Shown piece by piece: positions 26,214-61,407 of a DNA stretch of 64,000 nt; position 1 is the stretch's first letter; each line of letters begins with the position of its first letter. The translations under genes and the position numbers were made by a program. The DNA comes from a virus. The notes beneath the pieces were generated by a model. That model made no database searches. It had not been told where the DNA came from and worked only from the letters and a program-made list of their open reading frames with translations. Where the stretch lies: positions 28,632-92,631 of the IMG/VR virus record IMGVR_UViG_3300021963_006415, one strand, 5' to 3'.

Positions 26214-26222
26214 TATAAATAT
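26214..26222 (-). promoter_or_regulatory. Putative late-promoter motif ATATTTATA
   Basis: 6 nt upstream of ATG 26207. Confidence 0.6.
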
Positions 26223-50209: not shown

Positions 50210-50899
50210 TTAAATTAGATTAAATAACTCTGGTCTTTTATTTTTTAGTTCATTTAATTGTTCTTTTGTTAAATCCATATGTGTAAAGTCTGTTTCTTTA
50301 CTAAATAAAAACTTAAATCCTTTTATATTTTTATAATTTAAAAATAAATCATATATAAAATTACGATAAACAATATCAGGTTTAAAATTATAAACACCTC
50401 TAATTTGATTTATAAATCCATCTTTAGATATAACAACAACAACTCTACTATAATTAGAATTATCTATATCATATTCTCTAAGCTCTAAAAAATTTTGATA
50501 TGAATTCACTCTTCCACAATTATTCATTCTAAAAACCATTTCGGAACTATAATAGCAATTCAAATCAACCCAATATAATCCTATATTGTTTTTTCTATAA
50601 TCAAACAAAATATTATTATTTTCTATATAATTTTTTGATGTGTAAACTAATTTATTATTAATAACCCAATCTTTGTATAATTCTATTATATCGTTAATAG
50701 ATAATAACTCTAAGCCACCATATTTACCATTATTAACAAAATCTATATAATTTACAATTGGATAAACTATATCCGATACATATTTTGTTGATTTATGTGA
50801 TAGAGATATATTATCCGATTCAATTTTTTTTATAACGAAATCAGAATGCCTGTCGAAATGCGTTTTAATGTATTCTATATTTCTTATTATAGATGCCAT
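50210..50899 (-). CDS. Hypothetical protein, PcfJ-like C-terminal motif
   Basis: E...MNNCG...LELR...QIRGVYNFKP. Confidence 0.4.
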   Translation of the reverse strand: MASIIRNIEYIKTHFDRHSDFVIKKIESDNISLSHKSTKYVSDIVYPIVNYIDFVNNGKYGGLELLSINDIIELYKDWVINNKLVYTSKNYIENNNILFDYRKNNIGLYWVDLNCYYSSEMVFRMNNCGRVNSYQNFLELREYDIDNSNYSRVVVVISKDGFINQIRGVYNFKPDIVYRNFIYDLFLNYKNIKGFKFLFSKETDFTHMDLTKEQLNELKNKRPELFNLI

Positions 50900-51558
50900 T
50901 ATATTATTTTTTTATTATCAATTAATGAGTATAAAAAATGTGCAAAATTTAAATGACCATTAAATGAAAAGTGTGTATCCTTTATTAAACCATTCGTATG
51001 CTTATATATTGTTTCAAATGATGCGTATAGCTCATCATCATCTTCTAAAGACCATATGTAGCAAAACTTAACTTTGGTTTCGCTTAATAATCTTTTTTTT
51101 ATAAAATCAAATCTTTTTTTGTGTCTGTTTTTATAAAAAATATCATTTGAAAAATAATATTGAAAATTTAATATTGTTTCTATTTTATCTTTATCATTTA
51201 TACAATCTTTGTTCAAAATATTTTTAGCACCTTCATATGCTGATAATATGTGATGTATGTTATCATCAATAGGAACATCAATTCTTCCATATAAGGTTGT
51301 ATTTATTATAACAATATCATTATTTTGGATGGAATCAAAATTATCAATTATACTATCGAATATGTAGTCATTAGAAGCTCCATTTTTTCCAAAATTTTTA
51401 ACATCATAATTTAATAAATTACCTAAATGATTTGGCCAAATATCATCACCTTTATTCTTATATAAAGAATACTTCACACTAACATCGGATTTACAATTTA
51501 TATTACAACCATGACCAAATGTCATAGAATCTCCAAAAGTCCAAAGCACAGTACTCAT
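50899..51558 (-). CDS. SGNH/GDSL-like hydrolase/acyltransferase
   Basis: FGDSMTFG, WP, GKNGASN, DTHFSFNGH. Confidence 0.8.
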   Translation of the reverse strand: MSTVLWTFGDSMTFGHGCNINCKSDVSVKYSLYKNKGDDIWPNHLGNLLNYDVKNFGKNGASNDYIFDSIIDNFDSIQNNDIVIINTTLYGRIDVPIDDNIHHILSAYEGAKNILNKDCINDKDKIETILNFQYYFSNDIFYKNRHKKRFDFIKKRLLSETKVKFCYIWSLEDDDELYASFETIYKHTNGLIKDTHFSFNGHLNFAHFLYSLIDNKKII

Positions 51559-52166
51559 ATGAATCTTTTAATATTTTTTTTACAAAATTGAACATCTATA
51601 TCATATCTTTTTAAACTCTTTTTAAATAATTGTATTTCTGATGAATTGATTATATCGAAATCATTTTCTTTTAAAAAATTTATTACATCATCTATATAAT
51701 TAAAACTATTTAAATATAAATCTTCAAATAAAGATACTTCTACCTTGCCTCTTTTTATTATTGATATTTTTTCTCCAAATGATTTTAAAATTTTAAAATC
51801 CTCACCTTGAGCATCGCAATGAAAATAATCTACATAATTAATTTTATTTTGATTTAAAAACGCATCCATTCTTATAACATCTACCAATATTTTATCTACA
51901 TACTTTATTTTACTATTTTGATTAGCAAATTGAGTTAATTGATTTAAAGAAGAAGATAATCCATCACTTGCTAAATTAAAAAAGGAAGTTCCGTTAAAAT
52001 CACTAACCGCTTTTTCTATTATATTAACATTCTTATATCTTTTAAATTTGTTTTTTAATAAATTAGCATATATTGGATTTGGTTCAAAACACCAAACGTT
52101 TGCATTATCTAAAAAACCAATTGTGTGGCTTCCATCATTAGAGCCTATTTCAATTATATTTTTCAT
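51555..52166 (-). CDS. FkbM family methyltransferase
   Basis: IEIGSNDG, FEPNP, AVSD, HCDAQGED. Confidence 0.85.
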   Translation of the reverse strand: MKNIIEIGSNDGSHTIGFLDNANVWCFEPNPIYANLLKNKFKRYKNVNIIEKAVSDFNGTSFFNLASDGLSSSLNQLTQFANQNSKIKYVDKILVDVIRMDAFLNQNKINYVDYFHCDAQGEDFKILKSFGEKISIIKRGKVEVSLFEDLYLNSFNYIDDVINFLKENDFDIINSSEIQLFKKSLKRYDIDVQFCKKNIKRFI

Positions 52167-52861
52167 ATCAGTTTTCCGGATTTAAATAAATGCCTATTCA
52201 ACATTTTTTCAGCCATATGATATACTCCATTTTTTTCTAAATTATCATAAGATGGGTTACTATCAAATAAATAATTAATATTATTAAAATATAAATTAAT
52301 GTATTGTTGATTTAATGTAATTGGTGGAACACCATTGTACCTTTCAATAAAAAAATCATAATTCTTGTCTATAATTTTCAACACATCAGAATAAGATTTA
52401 TTAACGTTTAAATAATCATTAGTCGCCACTATACACGTGTTATTTAATTCGTTAAATTTTAGAGGGATGTTAGAATAACGTTTATATATTTCAGTAAAAT
52501 GCTCTGTTTGGGTTTCACTTAAAGGATGTTTGTAACCTAAGTTCAGTTTATCACCATCTACGATGTTCATTAATTTACTAAAATCTTCAACTAATAAATC
52601 ATTATCTAAATGTATAAATGGAAAATCAATTGTGGATAATACTTTTAATTTAGGATATGACCATAACGCGTTTCGATTATATTTTTCATCTATCTCAAAT
52701 TTAATCCATTTATATTTTAGACCCACCTGTTCGAAATAATCTTTATCGGAATATATCAAAGGAATGATGTTTTGACTATTTAAATTTTCAATAGAGTATT
52801 TTAAATATATTTCAGTAGTTTGTTTAAGTCTAATTGGTAAATATGTAAATACAACTTGCAT
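52163..52861 (-). CDS. Putative nucleotide-diphospho-sugar transferase-like protein
   Basis: WSYPKL...PFIHLDND (DxD). Confidence 0.55.
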   Translation of the reverse strand: MQVVFTYLPIRLKQTTEIYLKYSIENLNSQNIIPLIYSDKDYFEQVGLKYKWIKFEIDEKYNRNALWSYPKLKVLSTIDFPFIHLDNDLLVEDFSKLMNIVDGDKLNLGYKHPLSETQTEHFTEIYKRYSNIPLKFNELNNTCIVATNDYLNVNKSYSDVLKIIDKNYDFFIERYNGVPPITLNQQYINLYFNNINYLFDSNPSYDNLEKNGVYHMAEKMLNRHLFKSGKLI

Positions 52862-54114
52862 TATAATAAAGATTTTTTAATTAAAAATTCAGTTTTCAAA
52901 CCTCCATCAATTATCAAATCCAATAATGAATTTTCATTTTCTATTTTATACATTAGTTTGTTATGTACCAAATCGGACCATTCTTTACATAATCTATAAT
53001 TTTCATCAAAATTATGTAAAAAATCTTTAATAAAACATGCAAACATTTTTGAGTTTGCTCTAAATTCCTTAGATTCTTTATAAAAAGGATGCGGTCTTAC
53101 ACCTAACATAGATTGAACTATATCTAACGGATAATTATGCGTTGAAACAAAAGGTATCGAAGCTAATAGCAAGCTTAATGTTTTTTCTGAAAGATATTGT
53201 GATGTAAAATCTCTATCACTCCAAGACCAACTTTCGCATAATATTTGCATTTTGGATTTTGGAAGAACTCTAAAAAATACATCCATATATCCTTGGTGAT
53301 TTGCTATATAACTAATATCATCAAAATCTTTTTCACCATATATAGAATTGGTTTTTATATGAGTTATTTTTGGAGAATACTTTTCATATGCTTGATTTTG
53401 TAAAGCATTTGTATGTTGTAAATACAACCTATCATTTTTTAATTTACTTAATTCATTTATAATATTAATTCTGTTTATTTTATGATTCTTAATACTGTAC
53501 ATTAAATCATAATCAAAGTTTAATTTATCATATACTTGCTTAAACTCATAATACCATCTAACATTCCAATTTGTATTCCATTGAAATATTGTGTTTGTTA
53601 ATACATAATAAAAATTTGGGTACTGCTGTTTTATCGATTCGTTTAAAAAAAAATTATCTGTAATTATATGATGCTGACTCAATTGAGATATCAAAGATTC
53701 TATTTCTAACCATTTTTCATCAAAGTAATTAACATCTTTAGTTTGTAATATTTTTTCAGTTCTAAAATATGTTATTATCCATTTTTGATTTTTTGGACAA
53801 TTTTTTAATAAATTTATAAATATTTTTAAAATTTGTTGAGTTTCTCTTTCCATATACTGCATATCTGGCAGAATAGCACCTATTTTTGGGTCATTTTTCC
53901 CATATGAAAATGCCGCAAAATAATCTAATATATGGATACCATCTTCTTCAAAACTCATCTCTTGCTTAAAAATGAATTCTAATTTTGTATTATTGTACTT
54001 ACAAAATATACTTCCCTCATTATTATCTTTTATATCAAAGATTCTATTTGTAGTATTATGCGCTAATTTATAAAAAATAGATTTATTATAATAATGATGT
54101 ATGTATATTTTCAT
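52861..54114 (-). CDS. Hypothetical protein, glycosyltransferase-like C-terminus
   Basis: ILCES...YLSEKT...IPFV motif typical of GT-B-like phage proteins. Confidence 0.4.
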   Translation of the reverse strand: MKIYIHHYYNKSIFYKLAHNTTNRIFDIKDNNEGSIFCKYNNTKLEFIFKQEMSFEEDGIHILDYFAAFSYGKNDPKIGAILPDMQYMERETQQILKIFINLLKNCPKNQKWIITYFRTEKILQTKDVNYFDEKWLEIESLISQLSQHHIITDNFFLNESIKQQYPNFYYVLTNTIFQWNTNWNVRWYYEFKQVYDKLNFDYDLMYSIKNHKINRINIINELSKLKNDRLYLQHTNALQNQAYEKYSPKITHIKTNSIYGEKDFDDISYIANHQGYMDVFFRVLPKSKMQILCESWSWSDRDFTSQYLSEKTLSLLLASIPFVSTHNYPLDIVQSMLGVRPHPFYKESKEFRANSKMFACFIKDFLHNFDENYRLCKEWSDLVHNKLMYKIENENSLLDLIIDGGLKTEFLIKKSLL

Positions 54115-54725
54115 TAAATTAAATTATTTAAAATATTAGAATATGCAGATTCATTTATTCCCATTTTTTTCAATATTTCATTTGCTATATAGTAATGGCC
54201 TTTTACATTTGGGTGCCCAATCGAATCTATTGAATATTTATTTTTTATCATATGTTCTTTATTAATTAATAAAGATTTATCCCAATTTATTTCCGAATAT
54301 ACTGATAAATTTTTTACGCTAATATCTAAATCCATATAATTAAAAAAGAAATAATTAATTTTATTATTTTCTAAAAAATTTTGTAATAAGAACATATAAT
54401 GTAAAGTGTGTTTACTAGCCATAGGTTCAAATTTTGGAAATAATTCAGTCCAATCGTAAGGAGTAACTAAACGTTCACTTCCATCAATATCACAATGAGT
54501 TCTTCTAGATGGTCCGGACCATTGTAATATTACTAAATCTGGATTAGATTTTAATTTTAGTAAATCTTCTAACGCAGTATGCAATATCCAATCATTGCCA
54601 ACGCTACATTTTGAAGAATTTGTAATATCACAATTAAAATAACTTTTTAATAATGATGGATATGAATTTTGTTTATTTACCCCATAACCATAAGTAACTG
54701 AACATCCAATAGAATAAATAAACAT
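54114..54725 (-). CDS. SGNH/GDSL-like protein
   Basis: IGCSVTYG, GND, QWSGPSR, GHPNVKGH. Confidence 0.75.
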   Translation of the reverse strand: MFIYSIGCSVTYGYGVNKQNSYPSLLKSYFNCDITNSSKCSVGNDWILHTALEDLLKLKSNPDLVILQWSGPSRRTHCDIDGSERLVTPYDWTELFPKFEPMASKHTLHYMFLLQNFLENNKINYFFFNYMDLDISVKNLSVYSEINWDKSLLINKEHMIKNKYSIDSIGHPNVKGHYYIANEILKKMGINESAYSNILNNLI

Positions 54726-54727
54726 TT

Positions 54728-55216
54728 TTAAATTAATTTAGATTCTTCATTTTTAATTCTTAAACGATTATAACTATTTATATCAAATAAATTTTCATAG
54801 TATTGAATTTCAATATTTAATATCTTTGATAGTGTTTCTATTTCTTTAATCCATTTAAAGATATCACTTGTGCATAAATCTATAATATTTTTTGGCGGTT
54901 GTTTATAGCAATATTTATTATTAGAATTATACCCCTCTACTTTTGAAAAATAAGTTTGATATGAATGAGATTCTATCAACTCTTTTAAATTTTTTCTACT
55001 TAAAAGTATAACTTCATCAAATGATTTTGCTAATTCTAAATTATTGGGGTGGTGAGAAATTATCGTTTTAACAACTGAATTATTTTGATTATTATAAATA
55101 ACTCTATTAGTTCCATCAAATGGTTCAAAGAATGGTTTTAAATTTTTTTCATTTGCCAACCTATACATCAAAGATGTTGAGCCTGTTCTTGGTAAGGCTA
55201 TTATTAATATTTTCAT
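54728..55216 (-). CDS. Sulfotransferase-like (P-loop) protein
   Basis: IALPRTGSTSL (5'-PSB), FEPF, LSRKN...S, YYE. Confidence 0.7.
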   Translation of the reverse strand: MKILIIALPRTGSTSLMYRLANEKNLKPFFEPFDGTNRVIYNNQNNSVVKTIISHHPNNLELAKSFDEVILLSRKNLKELIESHSYQTYFSKVEGYNSNNKYCYKQPPKNIIDLCTSDIFKWIKEIETLSKILNIEIQYYENLFDINSYNRLRIKNEESKLI

Positions 55217-55776
55217 AAAAAAGATTTTTCTTTTTTCATAGGTATAAATCTATTTTCTTCCTCCGATAACCAAATATTTAAAGCATATCGTTCACCTTTG
55301 GTCACAGGCAAAACACCGTGAAAAATTTCATTTCCTATAAAAGATATACCATCTCCTTTAGAAAGTTTTATAAGTTTTATATTATTTAAATTTTCAAAAT
55401 GATAGTTGTTACTAACCTTATTTGTTATAGCAAATCTTCCATCTTCATACTCATCATTTAAAGTTATAACAATTGTTAAAGAACTACTGGAATCTTTATG
55501 TAAATTTAAATATCTTCCATCATAGTATGCAGTTAAACTTACGTTTATACTTTTTACTTTTAAAGATTCAAAATCCATCCATAAATTCCAATCCCCCGCT
55601 TTATATTTACTTTCTAATATTTTATATACTTTTAGCTTCAATTCCTCATCATAAATTCTTCTACAATCCCAATTTTCATTTGGATTATAATTAAATGGTA
55701 CTCCTATTTCTAATGCTTTTTTTAGAAAATAAGAACATTCATCATCATTAAAAAAATTATTTATTGTATAGTTCAT
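55213..55776 (-). CDS. 2OG-Fe(II) oxygenase
   Basis: LHKD...LNDEYEDG...HGVLPVTKGERY. Confidence 0.88.
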   Translation of the reverse strand: MNYTINNFFNDDECSYFLKKALEIGVPFNYNPNENWDCRRIYDEELKLKVYKILESKYKAGDWNLWMDFESLKVKSINVSLTAYYDGRYLNLHKDSSSSLTIVITLNDEYEDGRFAITNKVSNNYHFENLNNIKLIKLSKGDGISFIGNEIFHGVLPVTKGERYALNIWLSEEENRFIPMKKEKSFL

Positions 55777-56591
55777 ATTAGATGTGATTTTTTTACTGCA
55801 TCGTAATTTAATAAATTATTATTATCTATGAAACTAAATAATTCATCCGCAATAAATTTATATCCATTACTATTTGGGTGTTTACCCACAATATCCGACC
55901 AAGACTCATTATCTTCCCATACATCATTTTGTTTAGTATCTATTAGTAAGTCAGCCATTGTTTTGGTTTGATAACCCCAATATCGATTGATACCTATTAA
56001 ATTGGTTTTATTAATCAATGTATCTATATTTTTACTAATCATAGTATCAAACGCATCACAAAAAAGATATCTAATTCCTAACTCTTTGAACATAAACTGA
56101 AGATGAAGAATATAGTTTTGATTCACTATATCGTAGTATGCATCATTAAATAAATTAGCTATGTAGTAATTTCTAAAATTTTTCTCTGCTTTGTTATATT
56201 TTACACTATCTCCACTTATTCCATCAAATATATTTTTAAAAATATGTCCCTTACTTTTATATCGTTTACCCCATATAAAAAAATCATCTTCATTGTGAAA
56301 AAAAGGTAAGGGGTCTCTTAACGATGATGACCACATAACAACAACAAAATCATCTTTGGTGATAATTTCATTTTTCAGTTGATAAAAAATTGTATTAAAT
56401 ATTGCATTATTTGAGAAACCACCAACTCCATTATTTTTAACCTCACAACCAAGCGATTCAGACAGGTATTTTGGCCAACAATATTTTTGTCTTATTTTTG
56501 TTTTTTCTTCGGGAATATTGGTAGTATCTTCTTCTCTAATATTCCCACCAACTCCTTCTGTCCAGCTATCACCATATGTAAATAATTTCAT
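55773..56591 (-). CDS. SGNH/GDSL-like protein
   Basis: YGDSWTEG, WP, GGFSN, KHPNSNGY. Confidence 0.78.
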   Translation of the reverse strand: MKLFTYGDSWTEGVGGNIREEDTTNIPEEKTKIRQKYCWPKYLSESLGCEVKNNGVGGFSNNAIFNTIFYQLKNEIITKDDFVVVMWSSSLRDPLPFFHNEDDFFIWGKRYKSKGHIFKNIFDGISGDSVKYNKAEKNFRNYYIANLFNDAYYDIVNQNYILHLQFMFKELGIRYLFCDAFDTMISKNIDTLINKTNLIGINRYWGYQTKTMADLLIDTKQNDVWEDNESWSDIVGKHPNSNGYKFIADELFSFIDNNNLLNYDAVKKSHLI

Positions 56592-56594
56592 ACA

Positions 56595-57335
56595 CTATAT
56601 GATTGATAAGTTATTTTTAATAGAACCATCAATATACTTATTAACAAACTCTACTAACTCCGGTGTTCTCTTTACTTTAGAAGTTATTGAATTTTGATTT
56701 ACATGCATTAATTTAAAATCAACATTAAATTTATTAGACATATATGATTCAAATTCATACAATTTATCAAAATCAAATGTTTTAACTTTTACTCTATCGT
56801 TTAGAATCCAATGATATTGTGATGATAATCCAAATGTGTGAATTTGAAATCTATCATTGAACGCCTCATTAGTCAAATATTTTTGCTTAAACCCTAAATC
56901 GATTAATAATTTTTCAAAGAAAGATTTTCTAATATCTTGAGAGGAATAAATGTTTGTATATTCCGAATAGTTTTTTTTAATAAAATCAATTACAAACGAA
57001 TTATCTATATTTGTTAAATGATAAATAGTTTCTTCATCCGGATGTAGTTCACACATACCAGCTATAAAAAATCTCCAAGCGGATATAAACCTATCGGTAG
57101 AATCTCTTATTATTGAAACAAATTCAAAATCAGAACCAAAGCTAGCTATTAAAGAATGAAGTTTAGAATGTATGTGATTTCTTTTATTTTTCATTCTGAT
57201 ATTAGACCTAATCGAATTTTCCCATAAAGTATTTGGGAACTTTAAATCAAAACCATAAAATATACAGGATTCCTCTACAGACCAAGAAGCATTTTTAGGT
57301 ATTGGAATAAATGCAACTTTATCATTTATAATCAT
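56595..57335 (-). CDS. Sulfotransferase family 2-like protein
   Basis: FIPIPKNASWSV, H, IIRDSTDRFISAW (3'-PB), HVN. Confidence 0.78.
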   Translation of the reverse strand: MIINDKVAFIPIPKNASWSVEESCIFYGFDLKFPNTLWENSIRSNIRMKNKRNHIHSKLHSLIASFGSDFEFVSIIRDSTDRFISAWRFFIAGMCELHPDEETIYHLTNIDNSFVIDFIKKNYSEYTNIYSSQDIRKSFFEKLLIDLGFKQKYLTNEAFNDRFQIHTFGLSSQYHWILNDRVKVKTFDFDKLYEFESYMSNKFNVDFKLMHVNQNSITSKVKRTPELVEFVNKYIDGSIKNNLSII

Positions 57336-57336
57336 A

Positions 57337-57888
57337 TTAAATTAAACTTTTTGCGTTTTTAATTTTATTTTTTATTTGAAACCCCAAACTTAAAGTTATT
57401 CTAGGTTTATCACCAATAACAGGCGTAGAACCATGCATTACTTTTCCCGCAACACACCTCCAAACCATTTTTTCTTTAAGCTCGTTTATTTTTCCATTAT
57501 AAATTGAATGACCGCCTTCGTTTGGATACGATATTATTACATTATATCTAATGTGTGTATAACCTTCTAAATTTGGGTCACTATGTAGATGGATATTACC
57601 GCCGGCTTTATTTATACCAATACCATCTTCAAAATTTGGTTCTGTAACCCATTCATTAATTTTTTCTAAATTTATTATTCTATTTTTTATAGAACTAACT
57701 AACTCAAATATATTAGTATGAAATTCTTTTATAACCAAATACTTTCTAGAACCATATGGTGATGATTTTGATTCATTTACAGGAAAAATAAACTCATTTT
57801 CTTTTATCCAATTTAAAAAAGTTAATTGTTCACTATCGGATATAAAGTTTTCATACCCATATGTATCATATAGCTCGACTCGATTCAT
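57337..57888 (-). CDS. 2OG-Fe(II) oxygenase
   Basis: HLHSD...RYNV...EGG...HGSTPV...RITLSLG. Confidence 0.8.
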   Translation of the reverse strand: MNRVELYDTYGYENFISDSEQLTFLNWIKENEFIFPVNESKSSPYGSRKYLVIKEFHTNIFELVSSIKNRIINLEKINEWVTEPNFEDGIGINKAGGNIHLHSDPNLEGYTHIRYNVIISYPNEGGHSIYNGKINELKEKMVWRCVAGKVMHGSTPVIGDKPRITLSLGFQIKNKIKNAKSLI

Positions 57889-57908
57889 AACTAATTAAAT
57901 TAAATTAT

Positions 57909-58025
57909 TTATTGAGTAACATCCGTATATATAATAGATGCAACTTCTTGCATTATAGTTGCTATGCTAGAATTTGTAGATGAGCTTGTTAATACTACTT
58001 CTGATGATATGATTTTTGGTTTCAT
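57909..58025 (-). CDS. 38-aa Ser/Thr-rich peptide (unannotated)
   Basis: Manual translation MKPKIISSEVVLTSSSTNSSIATIMQEVASIIYTDVTQ; fills the gap between 58044 and 57888. Confidence 0.65.
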   Translation of the reverse strand: MKPKIISSEVVLTSSSTNSSIATIMQEVASIIYTDVTQ

Positions 58026-58043
58026 TTTATTAAATTATTTATA

Positions 58044-59573
58044 TTATAGTTTAGGTATTGGGCCATAGCAAAAAGAGCAACTATTACAGTAATAATAAGC
58101 ACATGAGCTCGTCCAACACCAACCATAGCATGGATTGTGTTGGATAAACGATAATCCTAAATTTTCATCTGCTAAAGGTAAAAACAAATCATTCTCTTCC
58201 ACATCTATATCATATACTTTTCTATTTGCATATACCACTTCTAAATTTGTTATTTTAGATTTAACCAATGTATTATTATTATAATCATAAAACACAATGG
58301 AATCATTTACTCTAAATTCATTTGTATGAGAGAAAATTGTTCTAAGAGTATCATATTCTTCTATTAACATATCACTATGTGGCAAATCTTCATAAATCAA
58401 CCCATTTTCTAGAGTTACTTTTATCATTAAAGATTCCTTAGTTTCACTAACTAAATTAACTATTGTAGTGCCTGTTATACCAAACGTAGTTAAATCTTCG
58501 GCAAAACTTCCAGAATTTACAGTTGGTATATACAATGGTTCGCCTGTTTCCGATATATCATTTGCCGGCACCCAAGGTAATGTAACTGTTTTTAAAACAT
58601 CATTTTCAAGTACTTGATTCGGAAATTTCATTGAACCATCTGCGTATAATATCTTAGTATCATCATCAAAAATGTATGAAATACCCATTCTTTGGTTAGG
58701 CGATTTACTAATCCATAAAGGTCTTGCTTCCTGATTCATTAAACCATTAGAATTATATAATGTATCCCAACTATTAGCTTTAATAGGTGATGTCATTATA
58801 TATGAACCCAAATGTAAACAATTTAATGTAGAACCATATATAATATCTAAACTTCTGATAACACCCATTTTTTCTTCAACCACATTATCAGTATTTGAGT
58901 GAAACTCTTCTAAATACTCTAAAGATGTTAACGAAGCTTTTAATGTTGCTAAATCTTCTAAAGAATTTACTTTATATAATTTTGGATATTGTACATAATC
59001 CGTATTTGGATATCTAGTCTTTACAATATAGTTTGGAGCATCTCCATCTGTTAAATGTAATTCTATCAAATTATCTACATTAAGACTTGTATCGGTTGAT
59101 GAGTTATAATATATTTTTGTTGAAAAAGATTGATTAGAAACTGCTCTATGAAAATTCACTTTATCTTTTGCATAACTTTCATCAATAATAGCTGTTGTAT
59201 CATATGATGTTCTTAATATTAAAGTATCATCTGCATCTTCTACATATGGAACTGTTATTGAATTTTTTGCAACTTCATATGCGGTAAATGTACCACCAAT
59301 TTCGTTTGCAACCTCTTCCAATTTATCTTTTAAAGTTAGTTTTGGAATATGCGTATCGAATCTTGTGGCTCTTTCTGTATTTATGAAATTACCATCTGTA
59401 TAAATAAAATGTAATTTAGATATAGAGTTATCTATTAAAAATTGTTTAAAAGATACCCAATCTAAATCAGGCACAATTATATTATGCACATCTACATTAG
59501 TATTTGTTTCTACAATTTTTAAGTTACCATTGTTATCTTTAACAAAGTCAGTTCCAATTATTACGGCTTTCAT
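58044..59573 (-). CDS. Circularly permuted ATP-grasp-like ligase + Hint domain + C-terminal six-Cys peptide
   Basis: GTDF...KIVETNTN, NYIVK, YLEEF; Hint IFDDDTKILYADGS...VYDIDVE...HN; tail PCYGWCWTSSCAYYYCNSCSFCYGPIPKL. Confidence 0.75.
   Translation of the reverse strand: MKAVIIGTDFVKDNNGNLKIVETNTNVDVHNIIVPDLDWVSFKQFLIDNSISKLHFIYTDGNFINTERATRFDTHIPKLTLKDKLEEVANEIGGTFTAYEVAKNSITVPYVEDADDTLILRTSYDTTAIIDESYAKDKVNFHRAVSNQSFSTKIYYNSSTDTSLNVDNLIELHLTDGDAPNYIVKTRYPNTDYVQYPKLYKVNSLEDLATLKASLTSLEYLEEFHSNTDNVVEEKMGVIRSLDIIYGSTLNCLHLGSYIMTSPIKANSWDTLYNSNGLMNQEARPLWISKSPNQRMGISYIFDDDTKILYADGSMKFPNQVLENDVLKTVTLPWVPANDISETGEPLYIPTVNSGSFAEDLTTFGITGTTIVNLVSETKESLMIKVTLENGLIYEDLPHSDMLIEEYDTLRTIFSHTNEFRVNDSIVFYDYNNNTLVKSKITNLEVVYANRKVYDIDVEENDLFLPLADENLGLSFIQHNPCYGWCWTSSCAYYYCNSCSFCYGPIPKL
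58134..58673 (-). other. Hint (intein-like) domain, residues ~301-480
   Basis: Block A xFxxxTxIxxADGSxK, block F KVYDIDVE, terminal His-Asn; no endonuclease motifs. Confidence 0.8.
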
Positions 59574-59590
59574 CAGTTATTTCTTTTTGT

Positions 59591-59599
59591 TATAAATAT
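59591..59599 (-). promoter_or_regulatory. Putative late-promoter motif ATATTTATA
   Basis: 17 nt upstream of the ATP-grasp-Hint ATG. Confidence 0.6.
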
Positions 59600-59606
59600 T
59601 AATATT

Positions 59607-60242
59607 TTAAATTAAACTTACTTTTTCTTTTACATATTCAAACCCAACATTACCGGCTATTACTATTCTATCTTTAGTAGAATTAGGCGAATTATTTGGA
59701 GAATGCTCTAATGTTCCATCCATAACAATCAGGTCACATACTTCCGGCATTATATAATATCTTTTACCTTCTTTACCCCCAATAATCAATGTACCCTCAT
59801 TGTTTTCTAAATTATCAGGCATCTGCAAATAATATACAAATGTGTAATTTGGATAAAACAATCCATCTTTTTTTTGTAAATCTACATGATTATGTAGGGA
59901 TACTTCCTCATTTTTTTTGAAATTAGTTTGTTTTGGTTTTCCCTTTCTAACAACATTTATCCAACACCCAAATTTGATTATATTAAAATTCATTTTATTC
60001 GTTTTTGCTAAAGATGCACATTCCGCTAAACAAAGTTTTACAGCTTGCTCCATAAAATTATTTGGAATAAAATCTTTTTCTAAATCAAAAAAGTCGCCAC
60101 CGAAAAAAGAATAATTATCCCTCCTTGCATAACTATTTATTAGATAATCTTCACATTCTTTTAAAACTAATTTTTGAAAATCATATGAATCTATTTTTGT
60201 CTTATAGACAAATATCCCATCTTCAAACGTAATTTTTTCCAT
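59607..60242 (-). CDS. Putative 2OG-Fe(II) oxygenase
   Basis: WINV...LHNH...FVYYL...EHSP...DRIVIAGN. Confidence 0.75.
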   Translation of the reverse strand: MEKITFEDGIFVYKTKIDSYDFQKLVLKECEDYLINSYARRDNYSFFGGDFFDLEKDFIPNNFMEQAVKLCLAECASLAKTNKMNFNIIKFGCWINVVRKGKPKQTNFKKNEEVSLHNHVDLQKKDGLFYPNYTFVYYLQMPDNLENNEGTLIIGGKEGKRYYIMPEVCDLIVMDGTLEHSPNNSPNSTKDRIVIAGNVGFEYVKEKVSLI

Positions 60243-60244
60243 AT

Positions 60245-60541
60245 CTAAATAGTTGTTTTTTGTTTTTTACTTTTTAAGGTAAGAGATTTTACATATGGCT
60301 CTTCCACTATATTCCATTTATCCAATGGACAACTACCATATTGGTCTGTAAATATTTTTTTTGATAGAGGACATCCACACTTACCACATAAAGCAGACCA
60401 TTTTTTATTATGAATTATTTCCTTACGCATATCACATCCCATACAAATATTCAGCCTAAGTTCTGCTAATTCTTTTTGCATTTTATTTGGGTTTTCTGCT
60501 GTTACCCAAGCTTTTAATATTTCTATTAAATCAAATCCCAT
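60245..60541 (-). CDS. Small Cys-rich metal-binding protein
   Basis: RLNICMGC...CGKCGC...CPLDKW. Confidence 0.7.
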   Translation of the reverse strand: MGFDLIEILKAWVTAENPNKMQKELAELRLNICMGCDMRKEIIHNKKWSALCGKCGCPLSKKIFTDQYGSCPLDKWNIVEEPYVKSLTLKSKKQKTTI

Positions 60542-60542
60542 T

Positions 60543-61103
60543 TTATAATAAAGTTTTTTTAATATTTTTTATTTGTTTTAATTTCAACCAATTTACTAAA
60601 GAGTATCTTATACCTGAAGTTATTGGTTTAACCCTATGTACCACTTCCGAAGGAAATATAAATAGATTTCCTACTCCTTTTTCTAATGTAATTTCTTTAT
60701 TTGTTAAAAGTTGAAACTCACCATCCATATATTCATCATTCAATTGCAGGACTATTGTATAAAATCTATCTTTAAATACCGTATCATTTGAATCGGCATG
60801 CCAATCAAAGAAATCGCCTTTTTCATATTTTGTAAACTGAAAGGTATCCAAAGATGGTTCATATCCTTTTATATTCTCAACATGCTCTTTGACTTTATCT
60901 AAAATTTTATTACCCACTATTCCAATATCTTCTACAAAAGAAACCTTAGATTTTCTCGTTTCTTTTTTTCTTTGAATATTATCAGGGTGATATACTTCCG
61001 CATTACTTAATTCCGAATCAATGTTATAATTGTTTATCAACAAATCACACTCATCCTTTTCTAAAAATTTCGGAATAGTTAGTATTTTATAATCATTTTG
61101 CAT
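60543..61103 (-). CDS. 2OG-Fe(II) oxygenase (prolyl hydroxylase-like)
   Basis: RKS, FQFTKY, WHAD, LNDEYMDGE, FPS..HRVKPITSGIRYSLV. Confidence 0.9.
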   Translation of the reverse strand: MQNDYKILTIPKFLEKDECDLLINNYNIDSELSNAEVYHPDNIQRKKETRKSKVSFVEDIGIVGNKILDKVKEHVENIKGYEPSLDTFQFTKYEKGDFFDWHADSNDTVFKDRFYTIVLQLNDEYMDGEFQLLTNKEITLEKGVGNLFIFPSEVVHRVKPITSGIRYSLVNWLKLKQIKNIKKTLL

Positions 61104-61104
61104 A

Positions 61105-61407
61105 TTATAACTTATTTTTTATAGAATGTAATTTAGCACATTCTTCGTACATCTCTAATTCAGTTAACCTATTCATCAACCATTTACCCATAGAATTAAA
61201 ATCCTCTCTCTTTAGAGTTATATATGCTGGCATAGATTTATACTTAATCAGTATTATTTCCCTACACTTACGATTTGATTTCCAGTTATCCAACTTATCA
61301 ACCAATTCTGAAAGGTTTTGTTTAGATAATCTAGTCTTAGGAAGATATGTTTTCCACTCCAAAGATATCCATCCCTTTTCCAATTTATCTAAGACTGTAA
61401 TATTCAT
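61105..61407 (-). CDS. Hypothetical protein
   Basis: 100-aa ORF with C-terminal EMYEECAKL. Confidence 0.6.
   Translation of the reverse strand: MNITVLDKLEKGWISLEWKTYLPKTRLSKQNLSELVDKLDNWKSNRKCREIILIKYKSMPAYITLKREDFNSMGKWLMNRLTELEMYEECAKLHSIKNKL

Follow-up and report, generated by a model that had tools for sequence, protein, structure and literature searches.

The window analysed here is a stretch of 64,000 nucleotides of the IMG/VR virus record IMGVR_UViG_3300021963_006415 (92.6 kb, estimated to be 49% complete), which comes from an uncultured large phage. It carries a gene for a protein of 509 amino acids (aa; about 58 kDa), in which a predicted ATP-grasp ligase domain, a degenerate Hint domain and a short cysteine-rich tail are fused. 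We propose, with odds somewhat better than even (a probability of about 0.55), that this fusion protein is a self-releasing, enzyme-fused precursor resembling those of the ribosomally made peptides that are modified after translation (RiPPs), and that it acts within a peptide-tailoring island of the phage genome. Every module comes from a known superfamily; the combined layout is undescribed in the family libraries and papers searched.

In the proposed mechanism, Asn480 at the end of the Hint domain would cyclise and free a 29-residue peptide with a new N-terminus, the 480-residue body serving as a folded leader and as the leader peptidase. Co-clustered 2-oxoglutarate (2OG) oxygenases and sulfotransferase-like proteins, joined in relatives by a Trp halogenase or a radical S-adenosylmethionine (SAM) enzyme, would decorate the peptide. 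With ATP, the ligase would form an amide bond at the free C-terminal carboxylate of the peptide, either with the peptide's own N-terminus, giving a cyclotide-like macrocycle, or with another amine, for instance that of a polyamine or of a Lys side chain. The C-terminal tag shared by the island proteins, K-x-S/T-L-I-COOH, would most likely bring the tailoring enzymes to the fusion protein as their hub. We call the system RiPP-like on the finding of a gene-encoded hypervariable core peptide (22% identity, against 63-66% in the body) beside conserved tailoring enzymes. If the proposal is true, no earlier peptide-maturation route would have a Hint domain in place of the leader peptidase and an ATP-grasp of the glutathione synthetase type fused to its own ribosomal substrate, and the route would be encoded by phages, not by cells. 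The self-releasing design and the hypervariable six-Cys scaffold might also find use in peptide engineering.

A reading of the same DNA made from its letters only (the sequence-only reading) had reported a 509-aa open reading frame (ORF) in three parts. Both the ORF and its layout were confirmed; the strand, which that reading left unstated, is the minus strand (58047-59573, with the stop codon reaching 58044). The motifs it had quoted were all located: GTDF..KIVETNTN at residues 7-26, NYIVK at 181-185, YLEEF at 220-224, QHN at 478-480 and, after it, the six-Cys tail of 29 aa.

The word-indexed search gave 152 relatives of the fusion protein, and the full HMMER scan showed a family of 262 clusters at 50% identity. 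A relative is encoded by 173 IMG/VR viral contigs of sizes up to 334 kb, from marine and freshwater metagenomes. Given a family of this size, its occurrence on so many viral contigs and the invariant residues described below, the three-part layout is not due to chance. Conservation was assessed in a wider alignment of 114 homologs and a narrower one of 30 sequences, and gene context in 80 loci.

The family is so far confined to phage contigs, with neither a cultured member nor an annotation. In Pfam the only match of the fusion protein was a weak, sub-threshold one to Intein_splicing (E 0.018), and PHROGs gave no match. Among cultured phages, tblastn of the fusion protein and of two families encoded beside it (F4 and F3 in Table 1) against 50,697 INPHARED records found nothing, nor did megablast of the 10 kb region. 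The pattern scan of 185,579 species genomes, one per prokaryotic species, revealed no relative of the fusion protein. Judged by the baseplate wedge protein, the phage is closest among cultured ones to Microcystis phage Mel-JY01 and to the 'immuto' phages of Flavobacterium, with 40-43% identity. No account of the fusion layout was found in the papers searched on ATP-grasp enzymes with Hint or BIL domains and on phage RiPP clusters.

Domains and tail of the fusion protein

Both the structural model and the conserved residues indicate that the first 299 residues form a circularly permuted ATP-grasp of the glutathione (GSH) synthetase/GspS/YgiC type, minimal in size but with a complete set of catalytic residues. 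The AlphaFold2 model of residues 1-300, based on the 114-sequence alignment, reached a predicted local distance difference test (pLDDT) score of 93.2. Its top Foldseek matches (E 1.6e-5 to 1e-3) were eukaryotic GSH synthetases (E about 1e-5), E. coli YjfC/YgiC, GspS and trypanothione synthetase. The VIA scan of 48,161 chains, which is independent of Foldseek, placed YgiC first (Z 9.6, model residues 1-290) and GspS second (Z 9.1, model residues 1-293 on chain residues 310-609), with GSH synthetase-type enzymes, the E-64 ligase Cp1B and trypanothione synthetase at Z 7.3-8.6. The earlier assignment of residues 1-300 to a permuted ATP-grasp was thus borne out by the matches of the model to YgiC, GspS and the eukaryotic GSH synthetases. 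For non-permuted ATP-grasps (RimK, LysX, Ddl, TTLL), the VIA alignment started only at model residue 50 (Z 5-6.4). This is expected for a circular permutation, since the N-terminal D9...E22-x-N24 hairpin sits C-terminally in ordinary ATP-grasps.

The Mg-binding D9...E22-x-N24 hairpin opens the ligase domain, and K185 and E223 lie downstream of it. Six residues (D9, E22, N24, R121, D131 and R240) are invariant across the 114 homologs, of which 90% or more also share T25, D113, D125, Y134, N181 and K185. In a weak hhalign alignment, D9, E22 and N24 fell on D102, E114 and N116 of YgiC. Searches by sequence gave no match to any ATP-grasp family of Pfam, GSP_synth, GSH_synth_ATP and CP_ATPgrasp included, at E up to 10, and the PDB sequence profile for the ligase yielded only a 26-residue match to biotin carboxylase (E 1.5).

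The phage domain has in common with GspS, YgiC/YjfC and eukaryotic GSH synthetase the fold and the order of motifs, with D...E-x-N ahead of the ATP-binding Lys. It differs from them in being fused to a Hint domain and a peptide, and in having no significant match to their Pfam families; in comparison with YgiC it is also about 90 residues shorter at the N-terminus, opening directly at the Mg hairpin. GSH synthetase, GspS and YgiC/YjfC form an acyl-phosphate on the C-terminal carboxylate of a small peptide, which is then joined to an amine. YgiC is annotated as a peptide-spermidine ligase, and a passage of the E-64 paper (PMC12568646) credits Pederick et al. (2023) with this activity of YgiC.

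The Hint domain was recognized by structure and by profile. In the full-length model of the fusion protein (pLDDT 81), the best Foldseek match of this region was BIL2 from a Tetrahymena BUBL locus, accompanied by the RecA mini-intein and the hedgehog Hint (E about 1e-7, template modelling (TM) score 0.65-0.77), and the family profile matched the KlbA intein at E 3e-8. The intein, BIL and hedgehog matches agree with the earlier description of residues 301-480 as a Hint domain ending in His-Asn. In the 30-sequence alignment, residue 301, which corresponds to Cys1 of inteins, is I, H, V or F and never Cys, Ser or Thr, and block B reads T387-x-x-N/D/T, not T-x-x-H. Block F retains an invariant Glu, with Asp in 29 of the 30 sequences, and block G has Q478 in 27 of 30, followed by the invariant H479 and N480. 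In the wider alignment, 90% or more of the 114 homologs retain the His-Asn end and the first Cys of the tail. The +1 position after Asn480 is variable (P, A, L, Q, G or T) and holds no nucleophile; a Cys stands at +2 or +3.

With the position-1 nucleophile and the block-B His lost, neither splicing nor a cut at the N-terminal junction is expected, while the residues needed for Asn cyclisation are retained. The Hint can probably cut only at its own C-terminal end. It shares with BIL, BUBL and PT-HINT domains the Hint fold and, putatively, autoprocessing in place of splicing, and differs from them in lacking both the position-1 nucleophile and the block-B His. The PT-HINT domains of polymorphic toxins release a variable C-terminal cargo. 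In the phage protein the cargo would be the 29-aa Cys peptide, not a ubiquitin-like (Ubl) or toxin domain as in BUBL and PT-HINT, and an ATP-grasp is placed upstream.

The six Cys of the tail are spaced C-x3-C-x4-C-x4-C-x2-C-x2-C; the tail is rich in aromatic residues, has no Asp or Glu and ends in Lys-Leu. Four of its Cys are invariant in the 30-sequence alignment. Plain tails (median 31 aa) were present in 157 of the 223 full-length homologs, with six Cys in 101, eight in 33 and 0, 1, 4, 7, 10 or 12 in the remainder; the variation among homologs spans 4-12 Cys and 21-68 aa. Among the 64 closest homologs, mean pairwise identity amounted to 66% in the ligase, 63% in the Hint, 36% in the tail and only 22% at the non-Cys positions of the tail, which evolves about three times faster than the body. 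The family check that the sequence-only reading had proposed hence found a conserved enzyme and Hint with a hypervariable post-HN tail, which was neither missing nor an invariant Zn-binding domain.

Rates of nonsynonymous (dN) and synonymous (dS) change were both raised several-fold in the 29 tail codons of the four closest genes (the window gene and those of loci L002, L003 and L004), which make a small sample. Between L003 and L004, dS was 0.54 in the tail, compared with 0.02-0.11 elsewhere in the gene. The raised rates may stem from an exchange of cassettes or from noise in a small sample, and the data do not tell these apart. The tail as a target of a diversity-generating retroelement was considered and dropped, as the contig of 92.6 kb, which covers about 49% of the genome, contains no second copy of the tail DNA; two ORFs of the contig with a YxDD-type motif were not examined further in this check. 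A look-up of the tail in the ESM Atlas gave nothing above chance.

The most constant feature of the tail is a Lys at one of the four C-terminal positions, present in 128 of the 157 plain tails. Six homologs have no Cys-rich tail (P0130, P0146, P0190, P0217, P0228 and P0230); three of them have Tyr for the penultimate His, and in each of the six the C-terminus is short and contains Lys. In three, HN is followed by no more than 5-7 residues, among them Lys and zero or one Cys; two read QYS or QYN in place of QHN, their tail being free of Cys and ending in K-P-V, and the sixth reads IYN followed by YKA. The QYS and QYN variants of the two homologs without a Cys tail suggest that HN and the tail are coupled.

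In further relatives the peptide is followed by another module. In 19 of the 223 homologs this is an S74-like module ('SDISFKEN...') with the Ser/Lys(+5) dyad kept and a weak match to Peptidase_S74 (E 5e-4 to 0.08); these proteins are about 582 aa long and the module comes directly after the Cys peptide. Eight homologs carry after the peptide a second Hint, with Cys1, ending in HN-K, HN-KK or HN-KKF, and 15 more distant ones have two or three Hints in tandem directly after the first, ending in Lys. The peptide is thus either terminal or followed by another self-cleaving module, which suggests that a free peptide C-terminus is required.

Two known systems invite comparison here. Peptidase_S74 is the intramolecular chaperone of phage tail spikes; the S74-like module of the relatives, missing from the window protein, follows a small peptide and not a trimeric fibre shaft. 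In the BUBL loci of ciliates, BIL domains flank a Ubl. Relatives of about 650 aa likewise flank the peptide with a Hint (HN) and a Hint (Cys1), which is a likeness of layout to BIL-Ubl-BIL; what was computed is the structural match to BIL2.

In the distant family members P0225, P0243, P0247, P0255, P0265 and P0267, the two or three tandem Hints after the first are of the Cys1 type and are separated by linkers of 1-5 residues or by a Cys-rich peptide. With the exception of P0225, these six proteins end in HN-K or HN-KF.

The genomic island and its C-terminal tag

The gene of the fusion protein lies in a conserved island. ORFs were called and clustered in 80 related loci of the 173 contigs, the fusion family being designated F0; the gene set stays together, with its order shuffled between clades, down to F0 identities of about 30%. 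Of 75 further loci fetched via the oxygenase family F3, 60 contain the fusion gene; the remaining 15 are for the most part truncated at a contig end. The sequence-only reading had described the gene as flanked by oxygenases and sulfotransferases. The oxygenases are confirmed by PF13640 matches in the neighbours; the sulfotransferases have weak matches only (the F4 family profile reached heparan sulfate 2-O-sulfotransferase at E 0.0016, and its Pfam matches are weak).

The island proteins share their C-terminal ends. In the window, 16 consecutive genes on the minus strand (50210-61407) end in a hydrophobic dipeptide or in Lys-Leu after a Lys-rich stretch. Across the 80 loci, 16 unrelated island families carry the tag K-x-S/T-L-I-COOH in 83-100% of their members. 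Among 659 proteins, position -1 is I or L in 93%, position -2 L or I in 90%, position -3 S or T in 62% and position -4 K in 59%, while the pattern fits only 12 of 293 proteins of the non-island neighbouring families. The tag is missing from all 80 F0 proteins, whose last residues are K-L, K-V or K. It is missing, too, from three F1 oxygenase homologs of cultured cyanophages, which stop right after the catalytic core and have no such extension. Since the tagged genes vary in their synonymous codons and use each of the three stop codons, selection appears to be on the protein, and the tag as an artefact of translational coupling was ruled out on these grounds. The tag pattern fits a class I PDZ ligand; the contig, about 49% of the genome, encodes neither a PDZ protein nor an S41 tail-specific protease that might read it. 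A common tag on unrelated tailoring enzymes suggests a new way of recruiting enzymes to a substrate.

A protein of 291 aa, P0201, appears to be a stand-alone ligase domain; it ends in ...STSSKLI, which resembles the island tag, and may be a fragment. The viral scan with P0201 as a query matched only ordinary full-length relatives.

Two enzyme families occur in the loci of relatives, outside this window. One, F6, present in 41 of the 80 loci, has the GxGxxG and WxWxIP motifs and matches PF04820 (E 5e-92) as a flavin-dependent Trp halogenase, and the other, present in 25 (F11), is a radical SAM enzyme with CxxxCxxC; an SGNH family (F7) was found in 36. The tails encoded in the halogenase loci contain x-C-W-C-P-W, and those in loci with the radical SAM gene directly downstream C-W-C-[STG]-W. 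This correspondence between tail motif and enzyme set fits tail-specific tailoring, as judged from the sequences. Tagged examples of the halogenase and the radical SAM enzyme lie at L059:752-1996 and L066:11610-12617 and in sister loci.

Candidate functions weighed

Both a Hint-released cargo (PT-HINT) and enzyme-precursor fusions (borosins) are known. By analogy with borosins, the phage protein unites an enzyme and a hypervariable core peptide in one polypeptide. Its six-Cys peptide and the radical SAM enzyme or flavin Trp halogenase in the islands of relatives recall, again by analogy, the SCIFF (six cysteines in forty-five residues)/ranthipeptide systems and the RiPPs with halogenated Trp. 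It differs from borosins and other RiPPs in the class of the enzyme, in having neither a leader peptide nor a RiPP recognition element, and in the putative Hint release that replaces a protease. A C-terminal tag shared by the tailoring enzymes sets the phage system apart from RiPP pathways as well.

Several points weigh against the self-releasing precursor. The ligase was assigned from its fold, with sequence matches in Pfam, PHROG and the PDB absent. In the window protein Asn480 is followed by Pro, and in inteins isolated Asn cyclisation without the upstream steps is usually slow. The tail has a pLDDT of 36-52 in the full model, where it is unpacked and not placed in the ligase site, and a Cys-rich tail in the reducing cytoplasm could simply bind metal. 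The short Lys-containing tails of a few homologs imply that the universal element of the family is the C-terminal Lys, not the Cys peptide. Glycans or virion proteins are equally conceivable as substrates of the island enzymes, and the tail motifs may go with particular enzyme sets only because two clades are involved.

Some of these points agree with an alternative in which no cleavage takes place. The Hint would then be a structural spacer, and the Cys tail would bind metal or serve in redox chemistry within an uncleaved enzyme of 58 kDa, which would make a small peptidyl-amine metabolite as GspS and YgiC do. The structural relatives do make small molecules, the residues for N-terminal splicing are lost, the Cys positions are conserved in a cytoplasmic protein, and the adjacent F2 protein likewise has six invariant Cys. 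However, the His-Asn pair, invariant in the narrower alignment and kept in at least 90% of the wider one, is hard to explain in a spacer. The loop lengths and Cys counts of the tail vary widely (21-68 aa, 4-12 Cys), the tail is unpacked in the model, and in relatives the peptide is flanked by extra self-cleaving modules. We regard this alternative as unlikely, although it ranks first among those considered.

Next in rank, and likewise improbable in our view, is a reading in which the ligase recognises the K-x-S/T-L-I-COOH ends of the neighbouring proteins, activates their carboxylate in place of that of its own tail, and joins it to the conserved Lys of the Cys peptide or to the N-terminus freed by the Hint. 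It would account for tags on 16 unrelated island families as against 12 of 293 non-island proteins, for a constraint exerted at the protein level (synonymous codons vary), for the missing extension in the cultured cyanophage F1 homologs and for the untagged state of all 80 F0 proteins. The closest enzymes act on C-terminal carboxylates of peptides with alkyl-amine acceptors, and no feature of the tail is more constant than its near-terminal Lys. Nevertheless, contact between the tag and the fusion protein is hypothetical, and the tag would also suit a ligand of the class I PDZ type or a degron recognised by a host protein. A few loci have tagged proteins with no fusion gene in view, on contigs that are cut. 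The broader form of this idea, in which the fusion protein would be the hub of a ubiquitin-like conjugation free of E1 and E2, serving at least 16 tagged families with a hypervariable Cys-rich label that could be swapped at one locus, seems to us a long shot.

A structural protein of the virion or associated with the tail fibre, with the Cys region as a disulfide knot in a trimer, could be read from the S74-like modules of 19 of 223 homologs, from the baseplate and fibre genes within the same window and from the promoter-like motif ATATTTATA, which precedes neighbouring large, probably structural genes as well as the fusion gene, but it is highly improbable, as the full catalytic set of an ATP-grasp is invariant, the model has no fibre-like repeat or beta-helix, S74 is missing from most homologs and the gene sits in an enzyme island, not among structural genes.

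Feature coordinates and the promoter-like motif

The positions of the domains, of the neighbouring genes and of the motif upstream of the fusion gene are collected in Table 1. F2 is encoded directly upstream of the fusion gene in 53 of the 80 loci; its Cys pattern is C-x2-C...C-x2-C-x-C...C, with a conserved Trp and Lys. PDB profile searches for F3 and F2 gave only spurious or weak matches, and the complex predicted for the fusion protein with F2 scored 0.01, which was counted neither for nor against binding. The 38-aa ORF past the fusion stop was not found in clades more distant than that of the window.

Table 1. Features of the fusion gene and its surroundings, in window positions.
Feature	Position	Strand	Basis or remark
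Circularly permuted ATP-grasp amide ligase domain (predicted), residues 1-299	58677..59573	minus	predicted fold and invariant residues
Degenerate Hint (BIL-like) domain, residues 300-480	58134..58676	minus	fold, profile and column counts
Putative released peptide, residues 481-509, 29 aa	58047..58133	minus	Cys framework kept, variable loops
ATATTTATA promoter-like motif	59591..59599	minus	18-26 nt before the fusion ATG
F3, 211-aa 2OG-Fe(II) oxygenase family, ends ...VSLI	59607..60242	minus	PF13640 in 18/20 members; 67/80 loci
F2, 98 aa, six invariant Cys, ends ...KTTI	60245..60541	minus	weak DUF6171 match; 74/80 loci
F1, 2OG-Fe(II) oxygenase, ends ...KTLL	60543..61103	minus	PF13640 E 1.3e-13; 77/80 loci, multi-copy
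38-aa ORF, 18 nt past the fusion stop	57909..58025	minus	tblastn, same place in 22 loci of the window's clade, 59-95% identity
F34, 183 aa, ends ...KSLI	57337..57888	minus	oxygenase-like by H-x-D...H motif alone; Pfam negative
F4, 246 aa, sulfotransferase-like, ends ...LSII	56595..57335	minus	66/80 loci
Remaining tagged island: SGNH/DUF6071 proteins, DUF6734 protein, others	50210..56591	minus	all end in a hydrophobic dipeptide
Second 2OG oxygenase	55213-55776	minus	tagged island
F5, P-loop sulfotransferase-like	54728-55216	minus	61/80 loci
FkbM methyltransferase	51555-52166	minus	tagged island

The sequence-only reading had assigned to the fusion gene a late-type motif of its own, ATATTTATA. 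The motif is indeed present and may be a promoter element; its role as a late promoter is weakly supported. The overall count in the window is at the level of chance (nine copies observed, 8.9 expected). Eight of the nine copies lie on the coding strand, and five are placed 7-36 nt upstream of a start codon. Start-proximal copies on the minus strand lie at 26214, 28169, 28175, 33388, 59591 and 62962, and the genes behind them include large, probably structural ones.

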